This document shows positions 37,357-56,951 of a stretch of DNA of 64,000 nt, piece by piece. The notes beneath the pieces were generated by a model that was not told the DNA's origin, made no database searches, and was given only the letters and a program-made list of their open reading frames with translations. The stretch lies in the IMG/VR virus record IMGVR_UViG_3300032287_003808, positions 32,001 to 96,000 of that record. One strand, written 5' to 3'. The stretch's first letter is position 1. The number at the start of each line of letters is the position of its first letter. The position numbers and the translations under genes were made by a program. The stretch comes from a virus.

Positions 37357-38052
37357 TTAAAAATCAATATAGTCATTTTCTAAATAGAAAACATAATGCT
37401 CCTTAAATATTTTTTGAAGTACCGTTACAATTTTAGTTATTTTAGGAGTTTTAACATCTATCATCTCATGTATGTAGATATAAAGAGCTTTTTTATTAAA
37501 TAAATCTATATTATCTCTTTTTCTAAAAATTTCTAACACAGCATCAGCTATCTGAGCATCATTTCCTTTAGGGAATATTTTATAAAGATTAAGCGATACA
37601 TGATCTACATATGAATCTATAAAACTAGATAATCTATCTTTTTGAGGATTACTTTCAAGGACATAAGAATGTTTTTCATCATGAATTATATCCTCTACAG
37701 GGGACGAAGATATTTTTTTATTATAATTCTTATCATTATAAAGAATCAACCAACGTTTAACTATAGTACCAAAATATGAATACGCTTTGGCTCCATTGTG
37801 TGGGTTAAAAAGATGAATTTTAGAGAGCAAGAAGATAATAATCTCATGTTGAAGATGCTCCAAATTTTCTACTTCAGTATGATAGAACTTAAATGTATGA
37901 ATTATATTTTGAGTTAATTTGAAGAAAGCATAATGTATTTCTTCCTCATATATCTTATTTCGCTCTATCACATCAGAAGTGCTATTGTATCTAACAATAG
38001 CATCTTCCGTTTCTTGAGTAAAATATCTTCTTTTTTCTCGTTTTTTTTTCAT
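37357..38052 (-). CDS. Late sigma factor (T4 gp55-like)
   Basis: YFTQETE...FFKLTQNI...KIHLFNP..GAKAYSYFGTIVKR, sigma region 2 pattern without region 4. Confidence 0.75.
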   Translation of the reverse strand: MKKKREKRRYFTQETEDAIVRYNSTSDVIERNKIYEEEIHYAFFKLTQNIIHTFKFYHTEVENLEHLQHEIIIFLLSKIHLFNPHNGAKAYSYFGTIVKRWLILYNDKNYNKKISSSPVEDIIHDEKHSYVLESNPQKDRLSSFIDSYVDHVSLNLYKIFPKGNDAQIADAVLEIFRKRDNIDLFNKKALYIYIHEMIDVKTPKITKIVTVLQKIFKEHYVFYLENDYIDF

Positions 38053-38336
38053 TCTTGCTTTATTCGAATTACTTTGAATTCATTTAATATATCTTGTATT
38101 TGTTGGACTGATTTGAAAAAGAAGCCTATCTCATCATCGGATTTAAAAGTTCCTTTATTATCAATTTCTTTAAGTTTTTGATCTGATGCTTCTACTACTC
38201 TAGATAGTCTATCTAAGTATGCGAGGTATTCCATTAAAACATCTTCTGCTTTTTCTTGTTTCCTCAAAAGGTTAAAAGTTGAAAACCCTAGAATTACAAC
38301 TAATACCGACAATATACATATTACAACTACTAACAT
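38049..38336 (-). CDS. Membrane-anchored hypothetical protein
   Basis: N-terminal TM; FKSDDEIGFFF. Confidence 0.75.
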   Translation of the reverse strand: MLVVVICILSVLVVILGFSTFNLLRKQEKAEDVLMEYLAYLDRLSRVVEASDQKLKEIDNKGTFKSDDEIGFFFKSVQQIQDILNEFKVIRIKQE

Positions 38337-38338
38337 AA

Positions 38339-39133
38339 TTACAAACTATTTAACATATTTTTTAAACTATCACTCTTAATTGAACTTAACGCTTTGGTTT
38401 TAGTTGGAGTTTTCTTTGGAGTGTCTTGTTGTGTCCCCAATGTAAAATTTCCTTTTTTACTATCCACGGATTTCTTACCTTCTTTTAACTTAGGTAGCCA
38501 TTCACGTTCAAACTCAATACGTGACGCCATTAAATCGGCTTGATGTAGAATATAAGGTAAACTAGTTCTTGGTTTTTGTCCTGGGGTAAATGAGATAAAG
38601 TATTTTTTATTAGCTTCATCATACAAGCCATCATGAGTTTGGATAGCAATCATCTCATTAAATGTATATTGAATACCATGAGATTGAAGTAAATATAAGC
38701 CTCTATCTGGTACTGAAGCAAATGGTACGCGCTCATTAAACATATAATCCTCTCCTAGTTTATCTCGGCGCCATTGATCTGTTTGAGGTAAATATGACTC
38801 TTCATCTTCTGAGCCTAGTTTACCTAAATCATGATTTAAAGCTGAGAATACTAATTCTTCAAGAGTAAAAGTAGATGTATCGCATCCTTCTTCATCCCAT
38901 AATTCAGCTTGCTTAATAGCACATCTAATAACTCGTAAAACATGTTCTACATACCCTCCAGGGAAAGCATTATGATACTCTTTTTTATGTGATGCAGGCA
39001 TCAACATTAAACGATCAGAATACTGTTCATAAAATTCTAATAATTTTTCTTTACGAGGAGATGAAATATGCTTATCAATGTAAGACATCAAGTCACCCCA
39101 ATTTGCTTGGATTTGTTCTGCTGTTAGATTCAT
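38339..39133 (-). CDS. HD-domain phosphohydrolase (YhaM-like)
   Basis: PAS...YHNAFPGGYVEH...LNHDLGK...HDG...LHQAD. Confidence 0.9.
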   Translation of the reverse strand: MNLTAEQIQANWGDLMSYIDKHISSPRKEKLLEFYEQYSDRLMLMPASHKKEYHNAFPGGYVEHVLRVIRCAIKQAELWDEEGCDTSTFTLEELVFSALNHDLGKLGSEDEESYLPQTDQWRRDKLGEDYMFNERVPFASVPDRGLYLLQSHGIQYTFNEMIAIQTHDGLYDEANKKYFISFTPGQKPRTSLPYILHQADLMASRIEFEREWLPKLKEGKKSVDSKKGNFTLGTQQDTPKKTPTKTKALSSIKSDSLKNMLNSL

Positions 39134-39151
39134 AACTTATTTGGTTTTTGA

Positions 39152-39349
39152 TTAATTTTCTCTTTCAACAATATTTTGAAGATCATCTAATAACTCATGA
39201 AGTTGTTTCATAGCATCAGAAATTTCTTCTTTTGTTCCGGTGCCCATAGTCTGTCTTAAAACTCTAAGGCGTGCTTGTAAGGATTGAATCCTTCTCAAAG
39301 CTAATTCTTTATTTCTCATATGATTATTTATTATAACAGGGATGTTCAT
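39152..39349 (-). CDS. Small coiled-coil protein
   Basis: ORF; start probably MRNKE. Confidence 0.65.
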   Translation of the reverse strand: MNIPVIINNHMRNKELALRRIQSLQARLRVLRQTMGTGTKEEISDAMKQLHELLDDLQNIVEREN

Positions 39350-39440
39350 TACCCCACTTTCTACTAACTGTCTTTCTTTCTGTCTATTTTATGTCTTACT
39401 ACTTGTCTTTCTTTTAACCCGTATAGCCAACATACGTAAC

Positions 39441-39878
39441 TTAATCTTCAATAGCCAAGCAATTTTGAACAAAATCTTGAATCTTTTTTAAAAAGGCGCA
39501 CTTTTCATATTCTTCTTGTTCTTCAAAATAATGCATACATAATTTAACAGCGGTTAAAAGGTTTTCATTAGACGCTATTTCTAAATCTTTTACCCATTGT
39601 CCATCATTCCAATCTACCTGGCTAATCCAAAACCATGCTCTATTATACATCATAAACTCTCCAGCTAAATCAACTTGGATCATATCTAGGCTTTCATCAG
39701 CTTGGCTAAAGAAGTTTATAATAGACTTTTTAAAAAGTAAACCATTAAGGATAAGTCTTTCAAAAACCTTAATTTTATAAATAGGGCTTTCTTTAAAACT
39801 CTCTAAGTTCTTACTAAGCACCTCACCATCATCATCAGAGGTGGGGTTAAAGTAGTTAAAAAATTTATTTAAATCCAT
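39441..39878 (-). CDS. Protein with C-terminal UVR (UvrB/C) motif
   Basis: FEEQEEYEKCAFLKK. Confidence 0.7.
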   Translation of the reverse strand: MDLNKFFNYFNPTSDDDGEVLSKNLESFKESPIYKIKVFERLILNGLLFKKSIINFFSQADESLDMIQVDLAGEFMMYNRAWFWISQVDWNDGQWVKDLEIASNENLLTAVKLCMHYFEEQEEYEKCAFLKKIQDFVQNCLAIED

Positions 39879-40011
39879 TATATTAAAATTAGTTTAAAGA
39901 ACTTAATCTATATCTTATTTACTTGATTTCGCCATAAAATAGCCTATAACCCTAATCTAAATCCTAATATCCGTATATACGACCTAGTATGTGTAGGTTT
40001 GTTGATAAATA

Positions 40012-40497
40012 TTATAAGTACCTTTGTCCCAACAATGTAATGGCTGTTTTGGCTTCCTCCACGGATATTTGAAAAAACTCTCTATCGTTATTTATCCTAT
40101 AACCTTTTAAATACCTATGAAGCTCAATTTCTAAAGCGTGTGCATTAAAGCATCTAAACGCATATACAACACTAAACTCCAAAGGCACGCCAGTTGATCG
40201 AGAAATTTGTTTAGCACGTTTATCCGGCGTCTTATCAGTAAATCCTATTTTAACCAAATTAGGCATAGTCTTATTTGTCAAAATGTAGATCCATGAGTCA
40301 CCTTCACCTTCCCTATTTTGATACAGATCTTTTTTTCTAGCTGTATAATAAGTTACGTTATCCCATTCTGGGTCTTCTTCATTTGGTGTTAGGGTAAAGA
40401 ATGCTGGTTCTGATCCTGTGAAGTCTTCTGATACTGGGATATAATTGTGTGCTTCGGATTCACTAATACGTTTCATACTAGTTTGGGTATTTTTCAT
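40012..40497 (-). CDS. GIY-YIG / T5orf172-domain protein
   Basis: WIYILTN..MPNLVKIGFT...RAKQISRSTGVP...E..LH...REFF. Confidence 0.9.
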   Translation of the reverse strand: MKNTQTSMKRISESEAHNYIPVSEDFTGSEPAFFTLTPNEEDPEWDNVTYYTARKKDLYQNREGEGDSWIYILTNKTMPNLVKIGFTDKTPDKRAKQISRSTGVPLEFSVVYAFRCFNAHALEIELHRYLKGYRINNDREFFQISVEEAKTAITLLGQRYL

Positions 40498-40750
40498 AAT
40501 ACTCCTCTTCCGTCATATAAATTGCTTCGTTAACTCGTTTTGTAAGTTCCTTAATGCTACGTTTTCTAGCGTTGACAAAAGTTAGAAACAAACTAGCTGA
40601 AATTATTAAGAACGAAATAATGTCCATGTCTACAATTTCTATTACGGCTAGTATTGATTCTACTACACCTGTAAACATTAATGTGATGATTACGAAATCA
40701 ATTACTCGGATTTCTTTTTCTAGTTGCTGTGCTTTTTCCTTGTTACTCAT
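40478..40750 (-). CDS. Two-TM membrane protein
   Basis: Two hydrophobic segments; GGTCATG leader. Confidence 0.7.
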   Translation of the reverse strand: MSNKEKAQQLEKEIRVIDFVIITLMFTGVVESILAVIEIVDMDIISFLIISASLFLTFVNARKRSIKELTKRVNEAIYMTEEEYYEKYPN

Positions 40751-40799
40751 GACCTTTATTTTTTAATTATTAATTTCTTTGAATATATGAAACTAATTT

Positions 40800-41088
40800 A
40801 GTATATACAAATATACTTGGTCAAAAGGTGAAATTTTTTTAAAGATCTCTTTTTGTGGGTTTTTGGGTTTTATCCATTTTTGCAATTTTGGAATCATGGG
40901 GTATATTCTTTGGGTGGTATATAATTATATATTTATCGATGGGTAAAAGTTGTTTTCGCTCTATAAATCCATCACATTCCTTCCCGTATACCCATACCCC
41001 GTACATTGACCGTAACGCGTACGGGGGATATACATACCTAGTACGTACCATATATGTACCATATACCGTATGCGGTGAGACTACGGAA
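40800..41088. other. Non-coding structured boundary region
   Basis: Local G/C skew flip near 40960; inverted repeat CCCCGTAC/GTACGGGG (40997-41026); short (G)TACCATAT repeats. Confidence 0.45.
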
Positions 41089-41108
41089 GTGGGTCCTTGC
41101 GGACCCAC
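41089..41108 (-). terminator. GNRA-capped hairpin ending the small-gene array
   Basis: GTGGGTCC-GCAA-GGACCCAC; U-tract weak. Confidence 0.6.
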
Positions 41109-41127
41109 CTTTATTAGAAGCGCTAAA

Positions 41128-41352
41128 CTACCATCTCGTCACTTGGTCATCATTGTTTTTGGTTGTCATGTATTCCGCATACGGGTCTTCACAGTTCTCA
41201 ATCGCTCTAACTATGTCACTTTTCAAATACGCAGCGTCCATCACGCTTAACTTACTTGTGTCGTAACCCATCGCCTTCAAGAAATCCATTACTGCGATGA
41301 ACTGATCCATTACGTTCACATCTACACCATCAAGTTTTTTCAAATTTTTCAT
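41128..41352 (-). CDS. Small hypothetical protein
   Basis: Own promoter and GGTTATG leader. Confidence 0.8.
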   Translation of the reverse strand: MKNLKKLDGVDVNVMDQFIAVMDFLKAMGYDTSKLSVMDAAYLKSDIVRAIENCEDPYAEYMTTKNNDDQVTRW

Positions 41353-41394
41353 AACCGCTATTTTTAATTATACTTTAATATACGTAATTCAATT

Positions 41395-41607
41395 TCAGAG
41401 TCTGTATCCCAACATATAATTGCCAATGTAACTATCTAAACTTGTTCCGCGGCAAATGTCATACCCTGTTTCCGCCTTGTCGTTATCACGTTTCGCATAC
41501 TCTTCTAACGCGGTGTACACTTCAGGTATCAATATTTTCTTCCACCCTGACAACTGTTCTGCTTGGATTCTCATTCCGTCCACTACTGTAAAAACTTTTC
41601 TTTCCAT
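41395..41607 (-). CDS. Small hypothetical protein
   Basis: Own promoter and leader. Confidence 0.8.
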   Translation of the reverse strand: MERKVFTVVDGMRIQAEQLSGWKKILIPEVYTALEEYAKRDNDKAETGYDICRGTSLDSYIGNYMLGYRL

Positions 41608-41647
41608 AACCGTTTCTTTAAATATACTTTAATATACGTAACTGTCT

Positions 41648-41782
41648 TTAGTCATTAGTGTCCTTAGCTAACTCTTCAAACTGTAATATCAACAACGGAA
41701 CCAATCCGATTAAACCCCAATCGTTCCCGAACGCCAATAATATCGTTCCAAATACTCCTACTGTAATACCAAATGTTCTCAT
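41648..41782 (-). CDS. Small membrane protein (44 aa)
   Basis: Not in track: MRTFGITVGVFGTILLAFGNDWGLIGLVPLLILQFEELAKDTND; leader identical over 23 nt to that of 41395..41607. Confidence 0.7.
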   Translation of the reverse strand: MRTFGITVGVFGTILLAFGNDWGLIGLVPLLILQFEELAKDTND

Positions 41783-41829
41783 AACCGTTTCTTTAAATAT
41801 ACTGAAATATACGTAATGTCATTTGCGAC

Positions 41830-42144
41830 TTATACTCCCGTCTTTGCTCTCAATATGTCATCTAACATGTCGATTAGGTCTCCTAGGTAGCCATTACGAG
41901 CTAAGTCATCTAAATCGTATGTCTGGTCTTCATAATACCCACCACAACAATCACATCCGAAATCAATATACTCACCTAACACTACTGTTCCGTTTTCGAA
42001 ATCGAAACCTCGCAACTCCAATTTACCCACTTTGTCAAGTCGATCACACCATAACTCCATTTCGAAATCGATGTCTTTAATTTTTCCGAATTGTGTAAAC
42101 GTGTTACACGCGTCCATAAACTCTCTTGCTGTCATAACCTTCAA
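41830..42144 (-). CDS. Acidic Cys-containing hypothetical protein
   Basis: GCDCCGG; ATG at 42135 has the GGTTATG leader and is the likelier start. Confidence 0.75.
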   Translation of the reverse strand: MKVMTAREFMDACNTFTQFGKIKDIDFEMELWCDRLDKVGKLELRGFDFENGTVVLGEYIDFGCDCCGGYYEDQTYDLDDLARNGYLGDLIDMLDDILRAKTGV

Positions 42145-42218
42145 TTTAGAATATACAATAAAGCAAATTTAACACCTACTACTCCCACTGCCAATAATAA
42201 ACATACTAAAACTTCCAT
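42141..42218 (-). CDS. 25-aa hydrophobic peptide
   Basis: Not in track: MEVLVCLLLAVGVVGVKFALLYILN; own promoter and leader. Confidence 0.55.
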   Translation of the reverse strand: MEVLVCLLLAVGVVGVKFALLYILN

Positions 42219-42268
42219 AACCGTTATTTTTAATTATACTTTAATATACGTAACAATGTTTGGTGTTA

Positions 42269-42427
42269 TTACTCCTTTATAACGTGTTTAATATACTCTC
42301 CCTCATCGAACCAATAAAACGCTAGTCGTCCGTCTTCAAGTCGTAACGTTATCACCGCTTGGTCTAAATTGCCATCCATACTCAAAATGTCGGCTCCGTG
42401 TTTCTGTAAAAATGTTTGCGTTCTCAT
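42269..42427 (-). CDS. Small hypothetical protein (52 aa)
   Basis: Not in track: MRTQTFLQKHGADILSMDGNLDQAVITLRLEDGRLAFYWFDEGEYIKHVIKE. Confidence 0.6.
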   Translation of the reverse strand: MRTQTFLQKHGADILSMDGNLDQAVITLRLEDGRLAFYWFDEGEYIKHVIKE

Positions 42428-42437
42428 GTACCCCGAA

Positions 42438-42455
42438 AGCCCGATTACTCGGGCT
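42438..42455 (-). terminator. GNRA-capped hairpin
   Basis: AGCCCGA-GTAA-TCGGGCT; weak U-tract. Confidence 0.55.
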
Positions 42456-42482
42456 CACAAGGTGTATATTTAAGATAACCGG

Positions 42483-42905
42483 TTATGAAGCGGTGTCGTT
42501 AATTACTACTTTTGGTCTTCCAAGTGGCATCACACCACCATTAGCGGCTTTCTTGGCTTCCATTTCCGCCAATCGTTTCTGGCGCGCACTTTCCCCATTC
42601 ACCGGGCGACCTTTTTTCAACTCACCATTTGCTCGTTTCGTCTCTAACTCCACTAACCGCATTTGGCGGGCACTGTCTGCCTTAATTGGTCGACCCTTTT
42701 TCAACTCACCATTCGCTCGTTTCTCAGCCAACTCGGCAATTCGTATTTGGCGGGCACTATCTGCCTTAACTGGTCGGCCTCGTTTCCCTGTTGTCTCTGG
42801 CTTGGCCATGTTTGCCAACATCTCTTCCAATACTACGCTCTTCATTGTATGAGCTCCTTTAATTCCTGCTGCAATCGCTGTTGCTACTAATTCATTTCTT
42901 TTCAT
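42483..42905 (-). CDS. AT-hook (GRP) repeat DNA-binding protein with Rho_N/HeH-like N-terminus
   Basis: Four GRP motifs in 28-aa repeats; ELVATAIAAGIKGAHTMKSVVL. Confidence 0.7.
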   Translation of the reverse strand: MKRNELVATAIAAGIKGAHTMKSVVLEEMLANMAKPETTGKRGRPVKADSARQIRIAELAEKRANGELKKGRPIKADSARQMRLVELETKRANGELKKGRPVNGESARQKRLAEMEAKKAANGGVMPLGRPKVVINDTAS

Positions 42906-42955
42906 AACTGTTATTTTTAATTATACTTTAATATACGTAACTGATTTAACTTAAC

Positions 42956-43096
42956 TTACTCCCCACTTAAACTGATGTAATTAAATTGGTTGTAATCCAT
43001 CTCACCAATAATCATAGATGCTACTACCGTTACTAATCCTACTACCGCAATGGTTCCCATTGCTCCTAATACTAATGTTTCAATCCAATTTTTCAT
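42956..43096 (-). CDS. Small membrane protein (46 aa)
   Basis: Not in track: MKNWIETLVLGAMGTIAVVGLVTVVASMIIGEMDYNQFNYISLSGE; own promoter. Confidence 0.65.
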   Translation of the reverse strand: MKNWIETLVLGAMGTIAVVGLVTVVASMIIGEMDYNQFNYISLSGE

Positions 43097-43137
43097 AACC
43101 TTTTTTTATTTAATATACGTAACCAATCTAACTAAAC

Positions 43138-43206
43138 TTACTCCTCATTATATTCAGAGTACCATTCAATCTTTTCCCAGCTAATTAGTCCATCAAAATT
43201 CTCCAT
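43138..43206 (-). CDS. 22-aa acidic peptide
   Basis: Not in track: MENFDGLISWEKIEWYSEYNEE; own promoter and GGTTATG leader. Confidence 0.55.
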   Translation of the reverse strand: MENFDGLISWEKIEWYSEYNEE

Positions 43207-43256
43207 AACCTTTATCTTAAAATATAATTAAATATAAGTAATTTACTTTAATTCAT

Positions 43257-43448
43257 TTACTCCTTACTTAACCATTTTAACCCATTAACATCTTTAACTT
43301 CAATAATCTCATACTCATTTTTATCCCTATCACACAATTCTTCAAACTCAATCTCACCCACCTCATAACCTAAACTCTCAATCAATTCTTCCTTACTATT
43401 ACTAATAAAACTAAAATTTAAACAATAATCAATCACTAAATACTTCAT
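43257..43448 (-). CDS. Acidic small protein encoded with no cytosine on the coding strand
   Basis: No G on + strand 43239-43479; protein lacks A, P, T, H, Q; own promoter and leader. Confidence 0.8.
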   Translation of the reverse strand: MKYLVIDYCLNFSFISNSKEELIESLGYEVGEIEFEELCDRDKNEYEIIEVKDVNGLKWLSKE

Positions 43449-43513
43449 AACTTTATCTTTTTAATTTATATAAATATAAGTAACAAAAATGGGGGCTCTT
43501 ACACCCCCACTAA

Positions 43514-43735
43514 TTAAATATAATCATATTCATCATTCCAATTACACTCAATAAATCCTATCTCACTCAAATCATCTATATAATTATAACAAAAATCTAA
43601 ATAATCTTTATAAATTATATCCTCACCCACCTTAAACTCATTTAAAAAGTTATTTAACATCTCATCATCCTCATAAGATTCAATCACTTCTTTAACATAG
43701 TCATAATCTCTAGTCTTAAATTTAATTTTTCCCAT
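43514..43735 (-). CDS. Highly acidic/aromatic small protein (DNA-mimic candidate)
   Basis: D/E/Y-rich; only 4 C on the coding strand. Confidence 0.75.
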   Translation of the reverse strand: MGKIKFKTRDYDYVKEVIESYEDDEMLNNFLNEFKVGEDIIYKDYLDFCYNYIDDLSEIGFIECNWNDEYDYI

Positions 43736-43794
43736 AATCTTTATTTTTTAATTTATATAAATATAAGTAATAAAATTAAATAATTATGTTCCTG

Positions 43795-43983
43795 TTAATT
43801 AAATGTTACCATCCTGTGAGCTAATAAAGCCAACTCCGTGTCATTAAAGGGCTCTTCTCCCTCGTTAATATATTTTCTCAATTGGTAGGCCACTATGGCC
43901 TTTATATCCTGGCCTGATATCTCCCCTTCATTAGCCCTCTTCATGGCCAGTTTGAACCTGTTTATTACTTTAATCTCATTCAT
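43795..43983 (-). CDS. Small hypothetical protein
   Basis: Own promoter and leader. Confidence 0.75.
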   Translation of the reverse strand: MNEIKVINRFKLAMKRANEGEISGQDIKAIVAYQLRKYINEGEEPFNDTELALLAHRMVTFN

Positions 43984-44029
43984 AACCTTTATCTTTTTAA
44001 TTTATCTTAATATACGTAATTTGTTGGGG

Positions 44030-44260
44030 CTATTTTATTCCTAGCCCCTCATATTTCAATAAACTATTTGCAATATACCTATGTACGGCATTTATATTTT
44101 TGAATTGGGACACATTATCAACAATTATTTTCTTGTCTGTGTCCTTAATATTTTTAGTTTCAATAAAACTTAGAATTACTCCTTTTGCCTCATTCAAATC
44201 TCTAATCTGGAATACTTGTGGTGCCACCTCTTCCAATACGCTTTTAATTTTGATCTTCAT
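44030..44260 (-). CDS. Small hypothetical protein
   Basis: Own promoter and leader. Confidence 0.8.
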   Translation of the reverse strand: MKIKIKSVLEEVAPQVFQIRDLNEAKGVILSFIETKNIKDTDKKIIVDNVSQFKNINAVHRYIANSLLKYEGLGIK

Positions 44261-44319
44261 AACTTTATCTTTTTAATTTATTTAAATATATGTAACTAAA
44301 TTAGGGGGTCTTATTCCCC

Positions 44320-44580
44320 CTAAATCCAATCCATACTATATCCCATTTCAACTAACTTATCCATAATATACTCTGGTAATTCAAATACACCATCATAATC
44401 TCTTAGGTAAGTTGTGTCTCCTTCCTTATCAAACCATAGGCCTCCTTCGGCATAAACCCTTTCACCCCCTGTTTCAACATCATACAATTCAAACCAACCG
44501 TAGCCTTCATTCTTGATTCCTACTGTCACTTCTAATTCTGTTCCTCGTGGTGATACCACCTTAAATGTTTCTTCTTTCAT
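44320..44580 (-). CDS. Acidic hypothetical protein
   Basis: YAEGGLWF...LRDYDGVFELP; own promoter. Confidence 0.8.
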   Translation of the reverse strand: MKEETFKVVSPRGTELEVTVGIKNEGYGWFELYDVETGGERVYAEGGLWFDKEGDTTYLRDYDGVFELPEYIMDKLVEMGYSMDWI

Positions 44581-44629
44581 AACCTTTTTTTCTTTTAATA
44601 TACGTAACTATTTCTAATGATTTTACTCC

Positions 44630-44776
44630 CTAAAAATCACTTTTCATTAGTTCCTCTATCTTTTCTTTTAATTCTCCTAGTAATTCAGATGTTAGCTTTT
44701 CCTCATCAGCTAGTCCATTGTTCATTACATTAACTAATTCCTGTAGTACTAGTTGCTTTTCTTCCTTTAAACTCAT
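44630..44776 (-). CDS. Small helical protein (48 aa)
   Basis: Not in track: MSLKEEKQLVLQELVNVMNNGLADEEKLTSELLGELKEKIEELMKSDF. Confidence 0.6.
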   Translation of the reverse strand: MSLKEEKQLVLQELVNVMNNGLADEEKLTSELLGELKEKIEELMKSDF

Positions 44777-44840: not shown

Positions 44841-45161
44841 TTATTCTTCACTTTTAATCATTTTTGGTCTCCCTAACTTAAAAGTTCCATTTAATTTTCT
44901 TTCTTCTATTTCCTTCAACCTCATCTGTCTTTTACTCTCTCCATTAACAGGTCTTCCTTTCTTTAACTCCCCATTACTTCTCTTCTCTTCTAATTCTTTT
45001 AGCCTTACCTGTCTAACACTATCTTCTTTAATGGGTCTTCCTTTTTTAATCTCCCCATTCTTTCTTCTTTCTTCTAATTCCTTTAGTCTTAATTGTCTTA
45101 CACTTTCAGGATTAACTGGGCGTCCCAATTGTTTTACTTCAATAATCTCTACTTTTTTCAT
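44841..45161 (-). CDS. AT-hook (GRP) repeat protein, paralog of 42483..42905
   Basis: Four GRP motifs in the same 28-aa repeat; no alanine. Confidence 0.75.
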   Translation of the reverse strand: MKKVEIIEVKQLGRPVNPESVRQLRLKELEERRKNGEIKKGRPIKEDSVRQVRLKELEEKRSNGELKKGRPVNGESKRQMRLKEIEERKLNGTFKLGRPKMIKSEE

Positions 45162-56357: not shown

Positions 56358-56951
56358 TTAAATAAAATCTTCCTCTACTAATTTATCTTTAAGAAGATCT
56401 CTTAATTTAGCTTTTGCTTTGAATAGATTTGATTTAGAAGTCCCTTCATTTATACCTAATATTTCAGCTACTTCTTTATGTGGGTGTTCTTCTAACACAT
56501 ATAATTTAAAAACTTTCCTATATGAATCAGGTAGTTTCTCTATTGTTAATAGTATTGTATCTAAAAAATCCTCACTATACTTTTTTTCCTCAGATTTAAG
56601 ATGAGTAGTATTAACATCAACAGTATTGTTTTTGAATTTATCTTTTCTTATTTCATCAATAGCTGTATTAATTACAATTCTACGCATCCACCCCTCTATT
56701 GAGTTGTTATATGAGTATTGAGATATTCTGTTAAATATTTTAATAAAACTGAGTTGTACTATGTCTTGTGCTTGGTGTTCGTTTTGAGTGTATTTAAGGC
56801 TCACATGCAACATTTTACTGTAGAACATATTGAACAGTGTTGTTTGACTCGCTTGTTTGTTTTGAACGCATCCATCAATGATATGTTTAAGATTATTTTC
56901 CATCAATATACTCATCTGTAAGGCATACATTACATTTTTGCTTTGGGGCAA
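56358..56951 (-). CDS. ECF-type RNA polymerase sigma factor (likely start 56903)
   Basis: AQDIVQLSFIKIF; GWMRRIVINTAID; LPDSYRKVF...HKEVAEILGINEGTSKSNLFKAK. Confidence 0.92.
   Translation of the reverse strand: MPQSKNVMYALQMSILMENNLKHIIDGCVQNKQASQTTLFNMFYSKMLHVSLKYTQNEHQAQDIVQLSFIKIFNRISQYSYNNSIEGWMRRIVINTAIDEIRKDKFKNNTVDVNTTHLKSEEKKYSEDFLDTILLTIEKLPDSYRKVFKLYVLEEHPHKEVAEILGINEGTSKSNLFKAKAKLRDLLKDKLVEEDFI

Follow-up and report, generated by a model that had tools for sequence, protein, structure and literature searches.

Restriction-site avoidance and the ACA-less genes that escape MazF are cases in which codon and amino-acid choices are bent to omit a word that an enzyme recognises, and synthetic G-less or C-less cassettes, which are man-made reporters, are transcribed in vitro with only three nucleoside triphosphates. 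Here, we describe two adjacent genes, hereafter gene 1 and gene 2, whose messages avoid cytosine, in a 64,000-nt window that comprises bases 32001-96000 of a 131,434-nt IMG/VR contig (IMGVR_UViG_3300032287_003808; 82% complete). The contig stems from an uncultured freshwater T4-type myovirus of flavobacteria, related to Flavobacterium phage immuto. Unlike in word avoidance, the word omitted here is a single letter, on one strand and within single transcription units, and the agent behind it is putative; unlike the synthetic cassettes, these genes are natural, protein-coding and conserved. We found no published account of cytosine-free natural or phage genes, most subscription journals being outside the search.

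With regard to gene arrangement, the closest described system is that of the PeSL (promoter-early stem-loop) cassettes of the T4-type phages RB49 and phi1. According to the accessible part of their description (PMC2839356), these are small nonessential early genes, each preceded by a copy of the same strong promoter and often accompanied by a stem-loop terminator; recombination between the promoter copies adds, removes and exchanges them. The present array resembles them in its 24 promoter copies, in an exact 242-bp deletion between two of these copies and in a cassette content that varies by relative. It differs from them in that the promoter, in a flavobacterial phage, reads GGA(A/G)T..CGTATATT and is not the TTGACA/TATAAT pair of the sigma-70-like coliphage promoters, and the accessible part of that source mentions no exclusion of a nucleotide from the cassettes. 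Judged by its sequence, the array appears to work like a PeSL array but, given the different promoter, to be a different element.

A second point of comparison is provided by the DpdA3-type 7-deazaguanine phages. In immuto, whose virion DNA has been analysed by mass spectrometry, all G is replaced by fdPreQ1, as stated in the accessible part of PMC10516641, which covers the base and its enzymes and, to that extent, no G-free template strands. Relatives of the present phage carry the same gene set, and one early gene of immuto itself (NC_055915.1 68330-68686) is low in C, with 5 C in 357 nt and a C-free run of 158 nt. On the other side, the DpdA3-carrying Campylobacter phage CP220 is without such genes, and the pathway genes are absent from this contig.

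Cytosine-free runs in genes 1 and 2

Open reading frames (ORFs) of at least 38 amino acids were called with a simple greedy caller of our own, which returned 194 ORFs, all on the minus strand and together covering 92% of the contig; a plus-strand run without G is therefore a C-free run in the mRNA sense. Two such runs, of 241 and 153 nt, lie at genes 1 and 2 (Table 1), and for both of them the run scan returned exactly the limits given in an earlier note on this DNA. The third-longest G-free run, in the window and in the full contig alike, measures only 82 nt, so that comparable runs are not scattered over the contig, and the longest runs without A, C and T are 43, 62 and 24 nt, respectively. 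When sequences of 131,434 nt were simulated 200 times under a first-order Markov model fitted to the composition of the 20 kb poorest in G, their longest G-free stretches reached a median of 87 nt and a maximum of 134 nt. The chance of about 1e-15 per position put forward in the earlier note is reproduced at the plus-strand G content of the window, 13.35% ((1-0.1335)^241 = 1.0e-15), and a local G content of 8.7-12% gives 3e-10 to 4e-14.

As previously claimed, the predicted message of gene 1 consists of A, G and U only. Its leader, coding sequence and tail hold no C, and Ala, Pro, Thr, His and Gln, the codons of which all require C, are absent from its protein. The four C of gene 2, also counted correctly before, sit in the codons ACT, GAC, TCT and AAC. 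The C fractions of the two genes (0.000 and 0.018) compare with a median of 0.136 and a next-lowest value of 0.058 among the 194 minus-strand ORFs, and the flanking genes contain 13.8% and 9.2% C.

The bias works on the nucleotide itself, at both the codon and the amino-acid level. At two-fold degenerate codons ending in a pyrimidine (NNY), genes 1 and 2 together have 71 T and 2 C, against 10,764 T and 3,054 C (22.1% C) in the other genes and 23.0% C in the remainder of the early genes (Fisher p about 5e-6 in both comparisons). Similarly, Leu is encoded by 11 TTR and no CTN codons (2,323 and 1,051 elsewhere), Arg by two AGR and no CGN codons, and Ser by six AGT codons and one other. Of the 136 residues, a single one belongs to the five amino acids that need C, compared to 17.5-21% elsewhere (binomial p 1e-10). 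With the protein sequences fixed and codons chosen at their genome-wide frequencies, 12.3 C would be expected in gene 1 and 13.9 in gene 2; codon resampling reached the observed number in 0 of 2,000 and 1 of 2,000 trials, respectively. T stands in for C (T fraction 0.37-0.39, compared to about 0.25 in the neighbours), G and A are unchanged, and leaders and spacers are C-free as well.

Low-cytosine genes in related phages

Gene 2 belongs to a family of 37 homolog clusters (90% identity), and both Ala and Pro are wholly absent from the 23 members aligned. Six further orthologs of 216-228 nt, from loci L002, L003, L005, L006, L007 and L008, contain 3, 0, 0, 1, 0 and 3 C, respectively, and a distant one in the complete record G001 contains 14 C in 282 nt. 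The seven close orthologs differ at 91 of 246 nucleotide columns, nine of which include a C, and their NNY codons end in T 289 times and in C eight times. Synonymous divergence (dS) ranges from 0.25 to 2.4 and the ratio of nonsynonymous to synonymous divergence (dN/dS) from 0.05 to 0.45 (20 informative pairs; L003 and L005 are nearly identical). With such a T to C ratio at a dS of up to 2.4, synonymous sites shift freely among A, G and T, not to C, and the protein is under purifying selection. The earlier view that this is no ordinary skew is thus borne out: 0-3 C in about 220 nt, retained at near-saturated synonymous sites, indicate selection or an equally persistent force. Selection on the nucleotide keeps the message free of C, from promoter to stop codon or terminator. 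Matches in L011-L016, with about 50% identity over 56 residues inside larger ORFs of 9-12% C, were not counted as orthologs.

Homologs of gene 1 comprise near-identical ones and two distant relatives only, one 65% identical (8 C in 156 nt) and one 42% identical (in L010). In another sample, protein P0042 begins with residues 1-37 of gene 1 and continues into an unrelated C-terminal part, which is ordinary in composition and includes Thr, Gln, His and Pro; it looks like a recombinant cassette.

At the same locus, relatives carry unrelated genes with 0-5 C and no homolog in this genome, such as genes of 116 amino acids with one C, of 83 amino acids with none, and of 137 amino acids with none inside a 527-nt run. 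Over all loci, 38 distinct genes with less than 3% C hold 104 C in 9,254 nt; nine have no C at all, and 32 encode products with an isoelectric point (pI) below 5. The effect is specific for the strand. Of 80 loci around a conserved early gene, seven have a C-free run of at least 150 nt on the gene strand and none a G-free one, and of 20 related records, eight have long runs (a C followed by 154 non-C positions), 22 in total and without exception on the gene strand. Furthermore, none of the 18 variants listed within 43239-43735 from four other lake metagenomes changes the base to a plus-strand G, and 3 of the 22 listed outside this interval do so. Adjoining the low-C blocks of several relatives, in sharp contrast to them, are C-rich stretches without long ORFs and with repeated AATCGTCA-like words (L071 16350-16800, L043 18800-19400 and L046 12400-12520).

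Of 23 distinct C-free runs of at least 150 nt in relatives, six start at the C within a promoter box, nine stop at C-rich hairpins behind the stop codon and three stop at the C of the next promoter; the C-free unit is therefore the message body.

Natural messages of three letters imply that selection on a nucleic acid can override codon choice and a quarter of the amino-acid alphabet. They indicate, therefore, that some agent in these infections makes each C in the RNA, or each G in the template, costly. Such an agent would point either to a so far undescribed effect of hypermodified phage DNA on transcription or to a cytidine-directed host defence and a counter-measure. The cassettes mark candidate first-line phage proteins, for which immuto on Flavobacterium sp. 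LMO8 offers a cultured system.

A possible 7-deazaguanine link and competing explanations

The contig, which occurs in metagenomes from freshwater and lakes in 14 studies, codes for a baseplate wedge protein, DNA ligase, a family B DNA polymerase, a clamp-loader-like ATPase, GroEL, ThyA and sugar-modifying enzymes. The complete relative G001 (159,934 nt) is collinear with it except at 37.8-67.5 kb of G001, a segment that by synteny matches the gap between the two ends of the contig. There, G001 carries a cluster (39968-44760; loci L027 and L026) of FolE, a radical-SAM QueE-like gene, QueD, QueC and a DpdA3 homolog, adjoining ribonucleotide reductase genes; the syntenic segment for this cluster is absent from the contig. 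A 264-residue protein of this G001 segment shares 37% identity (E 3e-58) with the annotated DpdA of immuto, G001 QueC is 59% identical to immuto QueC, and QueC is present in all four further relatives that are at least 90% complete. The DNA of the present phage may be modified as well. What the earlier note missed was this full 7-deazaguanine pathway of the relatives and, with it, a rival reading on the DNA side. As to replication, contig 128056-130785 (L019) and G001 encode a family B DNA polymerase and immuto NC_055915.1 has annotated family A polymerase genes at 1-1326 and 37898-40231, so that the polymerase has seemingly been exchanged within the phage group.

A message without C means a template strand without G, and our first choice, a tentative one, is that C is avoided for the sake of a G-free template in a clade that replaces G by 7-deazaguanine. 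The clade would swap the G of its DNA for a bulky 7-deazaguanine by means of DpdA3 with FolE, QueD, QueE and QueC. On a template without G, transcription of first-line genes from the incoming, fully modified genome would be independent of the modified base, and also of any host action on that base in DNA, so that the products would be made fast and reliably, whatever the state of the remaining genome. The association with the clade and the strand specificity of the runs support this reading. The modified base may also affect the RNA polymerase of the host. According to the accessible part of PMC4838386, two bacterial RNA polymerases were inhibited most strongly, among template modifications, by bulky 7-substituents on 7-deazaguanine.

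Several results weigh against a G-free template as the cause. The same source (PMC4838386), as far as its accessible part goes, places the inhibition at initiation, with no pausing and no slower elongation, and a block at initiation only does not predict a G-free gene body. Neither FolE, QueD, QueE nor QueC was found on the 82%-complete contig; DpdA was not found there by PF01702, a model that also misses the DpdA3 of G001, which was found pairwise. Phage CP220, for which the accessible part of PMC10516641 gives complete dADG replacement, has DpdA3 yet no low-C gene (minimum C 0.064 among 195 ORFs), and its longest C-free run is 78 nt. Three of the six complete or near-complete QueC-positive relatives (G009, G010 and G012) are without a run of at least 154 nt, and about 50 other early genes behind the same promoter type contain 6-19% C. 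Since the QueC-positive relatives all belong to one clade, the association amounts to one evolutionary event. Finally, patchy accessory cassettes fit better with a variable outside pressure than with a fixed property of the phage DNA.

In the explanation that we place second and regard as doubtful, which follows the idea of the earlier note, the pressure would act through C in the RNA or through the nucleotide pool. A message without C would complete, or survive, a host action that works via cytidine, be it 3'-deoxy-3',4'-didehydro-cytidine triphosphate (ddhCTP) made by a prokaryotic viperin, a shortage of cytidine triphosphate (CTP), a C-dependent endoribonuclease or a C-directed RNA-modifying enzyme, and the products would be counter-defence proteins. 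The C-free span is in line with this explanation, being the message body from promoter to terminator, as is the fact that synonymous and amino-acid choices are affected alike. Avoidance is also free of context: the residual 104 C of the 38 low-C genes sit mostly in Thr ACT codons, TC amounts to 22% versus 26%, and beyond Thr ACT no clear TC- or YC-specific loss, as a sign of a deaminase or of Rho, was found among them. In keeping with it, too, the cargo consists of small acidic proteins, and the cassettes are patchy accessory elements: one population variant lacks gene 1, and cassette content differs in every relative. In addition, internal promoters between low-C genes shed their C, which fits read-through messages: 10 of 52 TG-type promoters stand before genes with less than 2% C, compared to 15 of 520 CG-type promoters (p 2e-5, a rough value because the rows are related). 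This loss of the promoter C fits the template-G and the RNA-side explanations alike. However, such a defence is hypothetical for these hosts, the remaining messages of the phage would stay exposed, and the trait has been seen so far in one phage clade only, among the loci and records examined, whereas defences of the CTP/viperin and RNase types are widespread; it is not known from well-studied phages that meet viperins or MazF-type toxins.

The products lend this explanation no named function. That they are small and acidic, as stated in the earlier note, is correct, and a first-acting anti-defence role, also proposed there, is a matter of inference without a family or fold match. Gene 1 encodes a predicted small alpha/beta protein and gene 2 a predicted four-helix protein (AlphaFold, mean predicted local distance difference test scores 82 and 81). 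Neither protein matched a family in PHROGs, Pfam or NCBIfam at E <=1e-3, no solved fold matched the two models (best Foldseek E 2.4 and 1.5; VIA Z <=4.5), their matches in BFVD were uncharacterised phage proteins only, and the ESM Atlas gave no usable feature match. No likeness to a known inhibitor (DNA mimic or anti-CRISPR) was found by family or fold for either of them. Similarly, 10 low-C proteins of relatives had no Pfam match, and one had a weak PHROG match of unknown function.

The earlier note had also pointed out that, with all C on one strand, no G/C-containing palindromic restriction site can exist. This is true by logic but cannot shield a 131-kb genome that elsewhere is full of these sites; moreover, the constraint tracks the limits of transcripts and not DNA segments.

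A combination of the two leading explanations is conceivable, though rather unlikely. Here, a host attack on the modified G (excision, nicking or tagging), or poor reading of it by the host polymerase, could block the copied strand only and so could not stop transcription from G-free templates, and their products would neutralise the obstacle for the rest of the genome. If so, this would be a new principle, by which a gene becomes immune to a base-directed attack, or to the DNA chemistry of its own phage, by omitting the base from the copied strand.

Tuning of expression is an improbable cause. A G-rich, C-free message would neither load Rho, which prefers C-rich, G-poor RNA, nor fold into G-C helices, and would thus escape premature termination and stay accessible to ribosomes in a host without Shine-Dalgarno pairing. 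The early array is indeed G-rich and C-poor (median G 0.222 versus 0.175 and C 0.124 versus 0.140; Mann-Whitney p 4e-7), and among 44 early messages, that of gene 1 has the least structure (-0.087 kcal/mol per nt). However, an early message with 7% C is equally unstructured (-0.087), gene 2 is unremarkable (-0.140), and zero C is needed for neither aim. There is no clear deficit of pyrimidine-C dimers beyond the trivial CC, and neighbouring cassettes with the same promoters contain 9-14% C.

We give no more credit to mutation pressure. In that case, the non-template strand, exposed in very heavily transcribed cassettes, would repeatedly undergo C-to-T deamination, either spontaneously or through a deaminase of single-stranded DNA, until every C dispensable to the proteins had gone. 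The replacement of C by T would be accounted for in this way, as would the high frequencies of Tyr (9.6% versus 4.7%) and Cys (2.9% versus 0.8%) and the enrichment of Ile and Phe, which resemble His-to-Tyr, Arg-to-Cys and Thr-to-Ile changes, and the more frequent loss of the C of the -10-like box before low-C genes. Against it stand the sharp edges of the effect, with 13.8% C in a gene 60 nt upstream, which is preceded by a separate promoter of that subtype. An equilibrium near 1% C (104 of 9,254 nt) beside 12-14% would need a more than 10-fold local excess in rate within mobile single cassettes, one-step hypermutation would make stops from Gln and Arg codons, and the proteins are under purifying selection (see dN/dS above).

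Chance, or a by-product of an acidic, AT-rich protein composition, can practically be dismissed: the proteins are indeed rich in Glu, Asp, Lys, Asn, Ile and Tyr, all of which can be coded without C, but the synonymous-site and resampling tests, the simulated runs of at most 134 nt, the C-free leaders and spacers and the low C kept across saturated synonymous divergence contradict it.

Putative promoters, terminators and the cassette array

The positions of the features at this locus are compiled in Table 1. All 24 copies of the motif TTACNTATATT on the contig lie on the gene strand and none on the opposite strand, 23 matches fall in the window against 1.18 expected, and every copy precedes an ATG by 14-27 nt. 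The three local promoters (43241, 43483 and 43770) read TTACTTATATT and not TTACGTATATT, the form of most copies, as the earlier note had it. This variant swaps a G, not a C, in the mRNA sense and is thus no part of the C avoidance; four further copies of TTACTTATATT stand before genes of ordinary C content.

Table 1. Features of the low-cytosine locus, in window coordinates.
Feature	Position	Strand	Remarks
22-codon mini-ORF	43138..43206	-	Between gene 1 and the next cassette; own TTACTTATATT promoter
Gene 1 cassette, 242 bp	43229..43470	.	Absent from one contig of another lake metagenome
Next promoter box, TTACTTATATT	43231..43241	-	Putative; before the mini-ORF; C at 43238 ends the run
C-free stretch, mRNA sense	43239..43479	-	241 nt; fills the interval between the C of one TTAC promoter box and that of the following box
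Gene 1	43257..43448	-	63 amino acids, pI 4.3, 0 C in 192 nt
Promoter box of gene 1, TTACTTATATT (variant of TTACGTATATT)	43473..43483	-	Putative, by position and conservation; C at 43480 bounds the run
Intrinsic-terminator-like hairpin, GGGGG-TGTAAGAG-CCCCC, and T run	43484..43508	-	Behind gene 2; read from sequence
Second C-free stretch	43496..43648	-	153 nt; 3' 135 nt of gene 2 and tail
Gene 2	43514..43735	-	73 amino acids, pI 4.1, 4 C in 222 nt
Promoter box of gene 2, TTACTTATATT	43760..43770	-	Putative, by position and conservation

Between the two C-free runs, C-rich sequence is confined to the terminator-like hairpin, an arrangement shared by relatives. As this hairpin (43491-43508) contains C and follows gene 2, the transcript of gene 2 is not wholly C-free. 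A hairpin with a T run precedes the promoter of gene 1 and several promoters in relatives, and none was found between gene 1 and the following promoter. The junction of the 242-bp deletion lies inside a 13-nt repeat common to both promoter boxes; the deletion is carried by a single contig, with 140 and 325 nt on its two sides. Gain and loss affect whole cassettes, from promoter to terminator, and the two genes are members of an exchangeable group of accessory genes with small acidic products. Both cassettes are probably expressed early.

We take the array promoter, GGA..N..CGTATATT, to resemble promoters of extracytoplasmic function (ECF) sigma factors with a CGT -10 box. The contig encodes an ECF-type sigma factor of the Bacteroidota type (window 56358-56930, minus strand; TIGR02937, E 5.5e-26), which was considered as the reader of this promoter and dropped: of 80 related loci, tblastn returned an ortholog in one only, and neither G001 nor the 50 kb of immuto that were searched gave any. 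For the same reason, the idea that the promoter subtypes are sigma-dependent classes was abandoned.

The window gave no match in Rfam and the tRNA scan none, and a nucleotide search of the phage collection returned no match for the 4-kb neighbourhood.

Just downstream of the C-free pair, the early genes at window 41128-42905 are CpG-rich and CT-poor: for example, 11 of 30, 16 of 38 and 23 of 74 C stand before G, compared to 10% genome-wide, and 5 of 74 and 2 of 23 before T, compared to 32%. Two paralogs on the minus strand, at 42483-42905 and 44841-45161, encode AT-hook-like repeats of the form GRP(V/I)...RQ..L.E.E..R.NGE.KK; C amounts to 17.5% in one and 6.2% in the other, and copies are present in relatives too.

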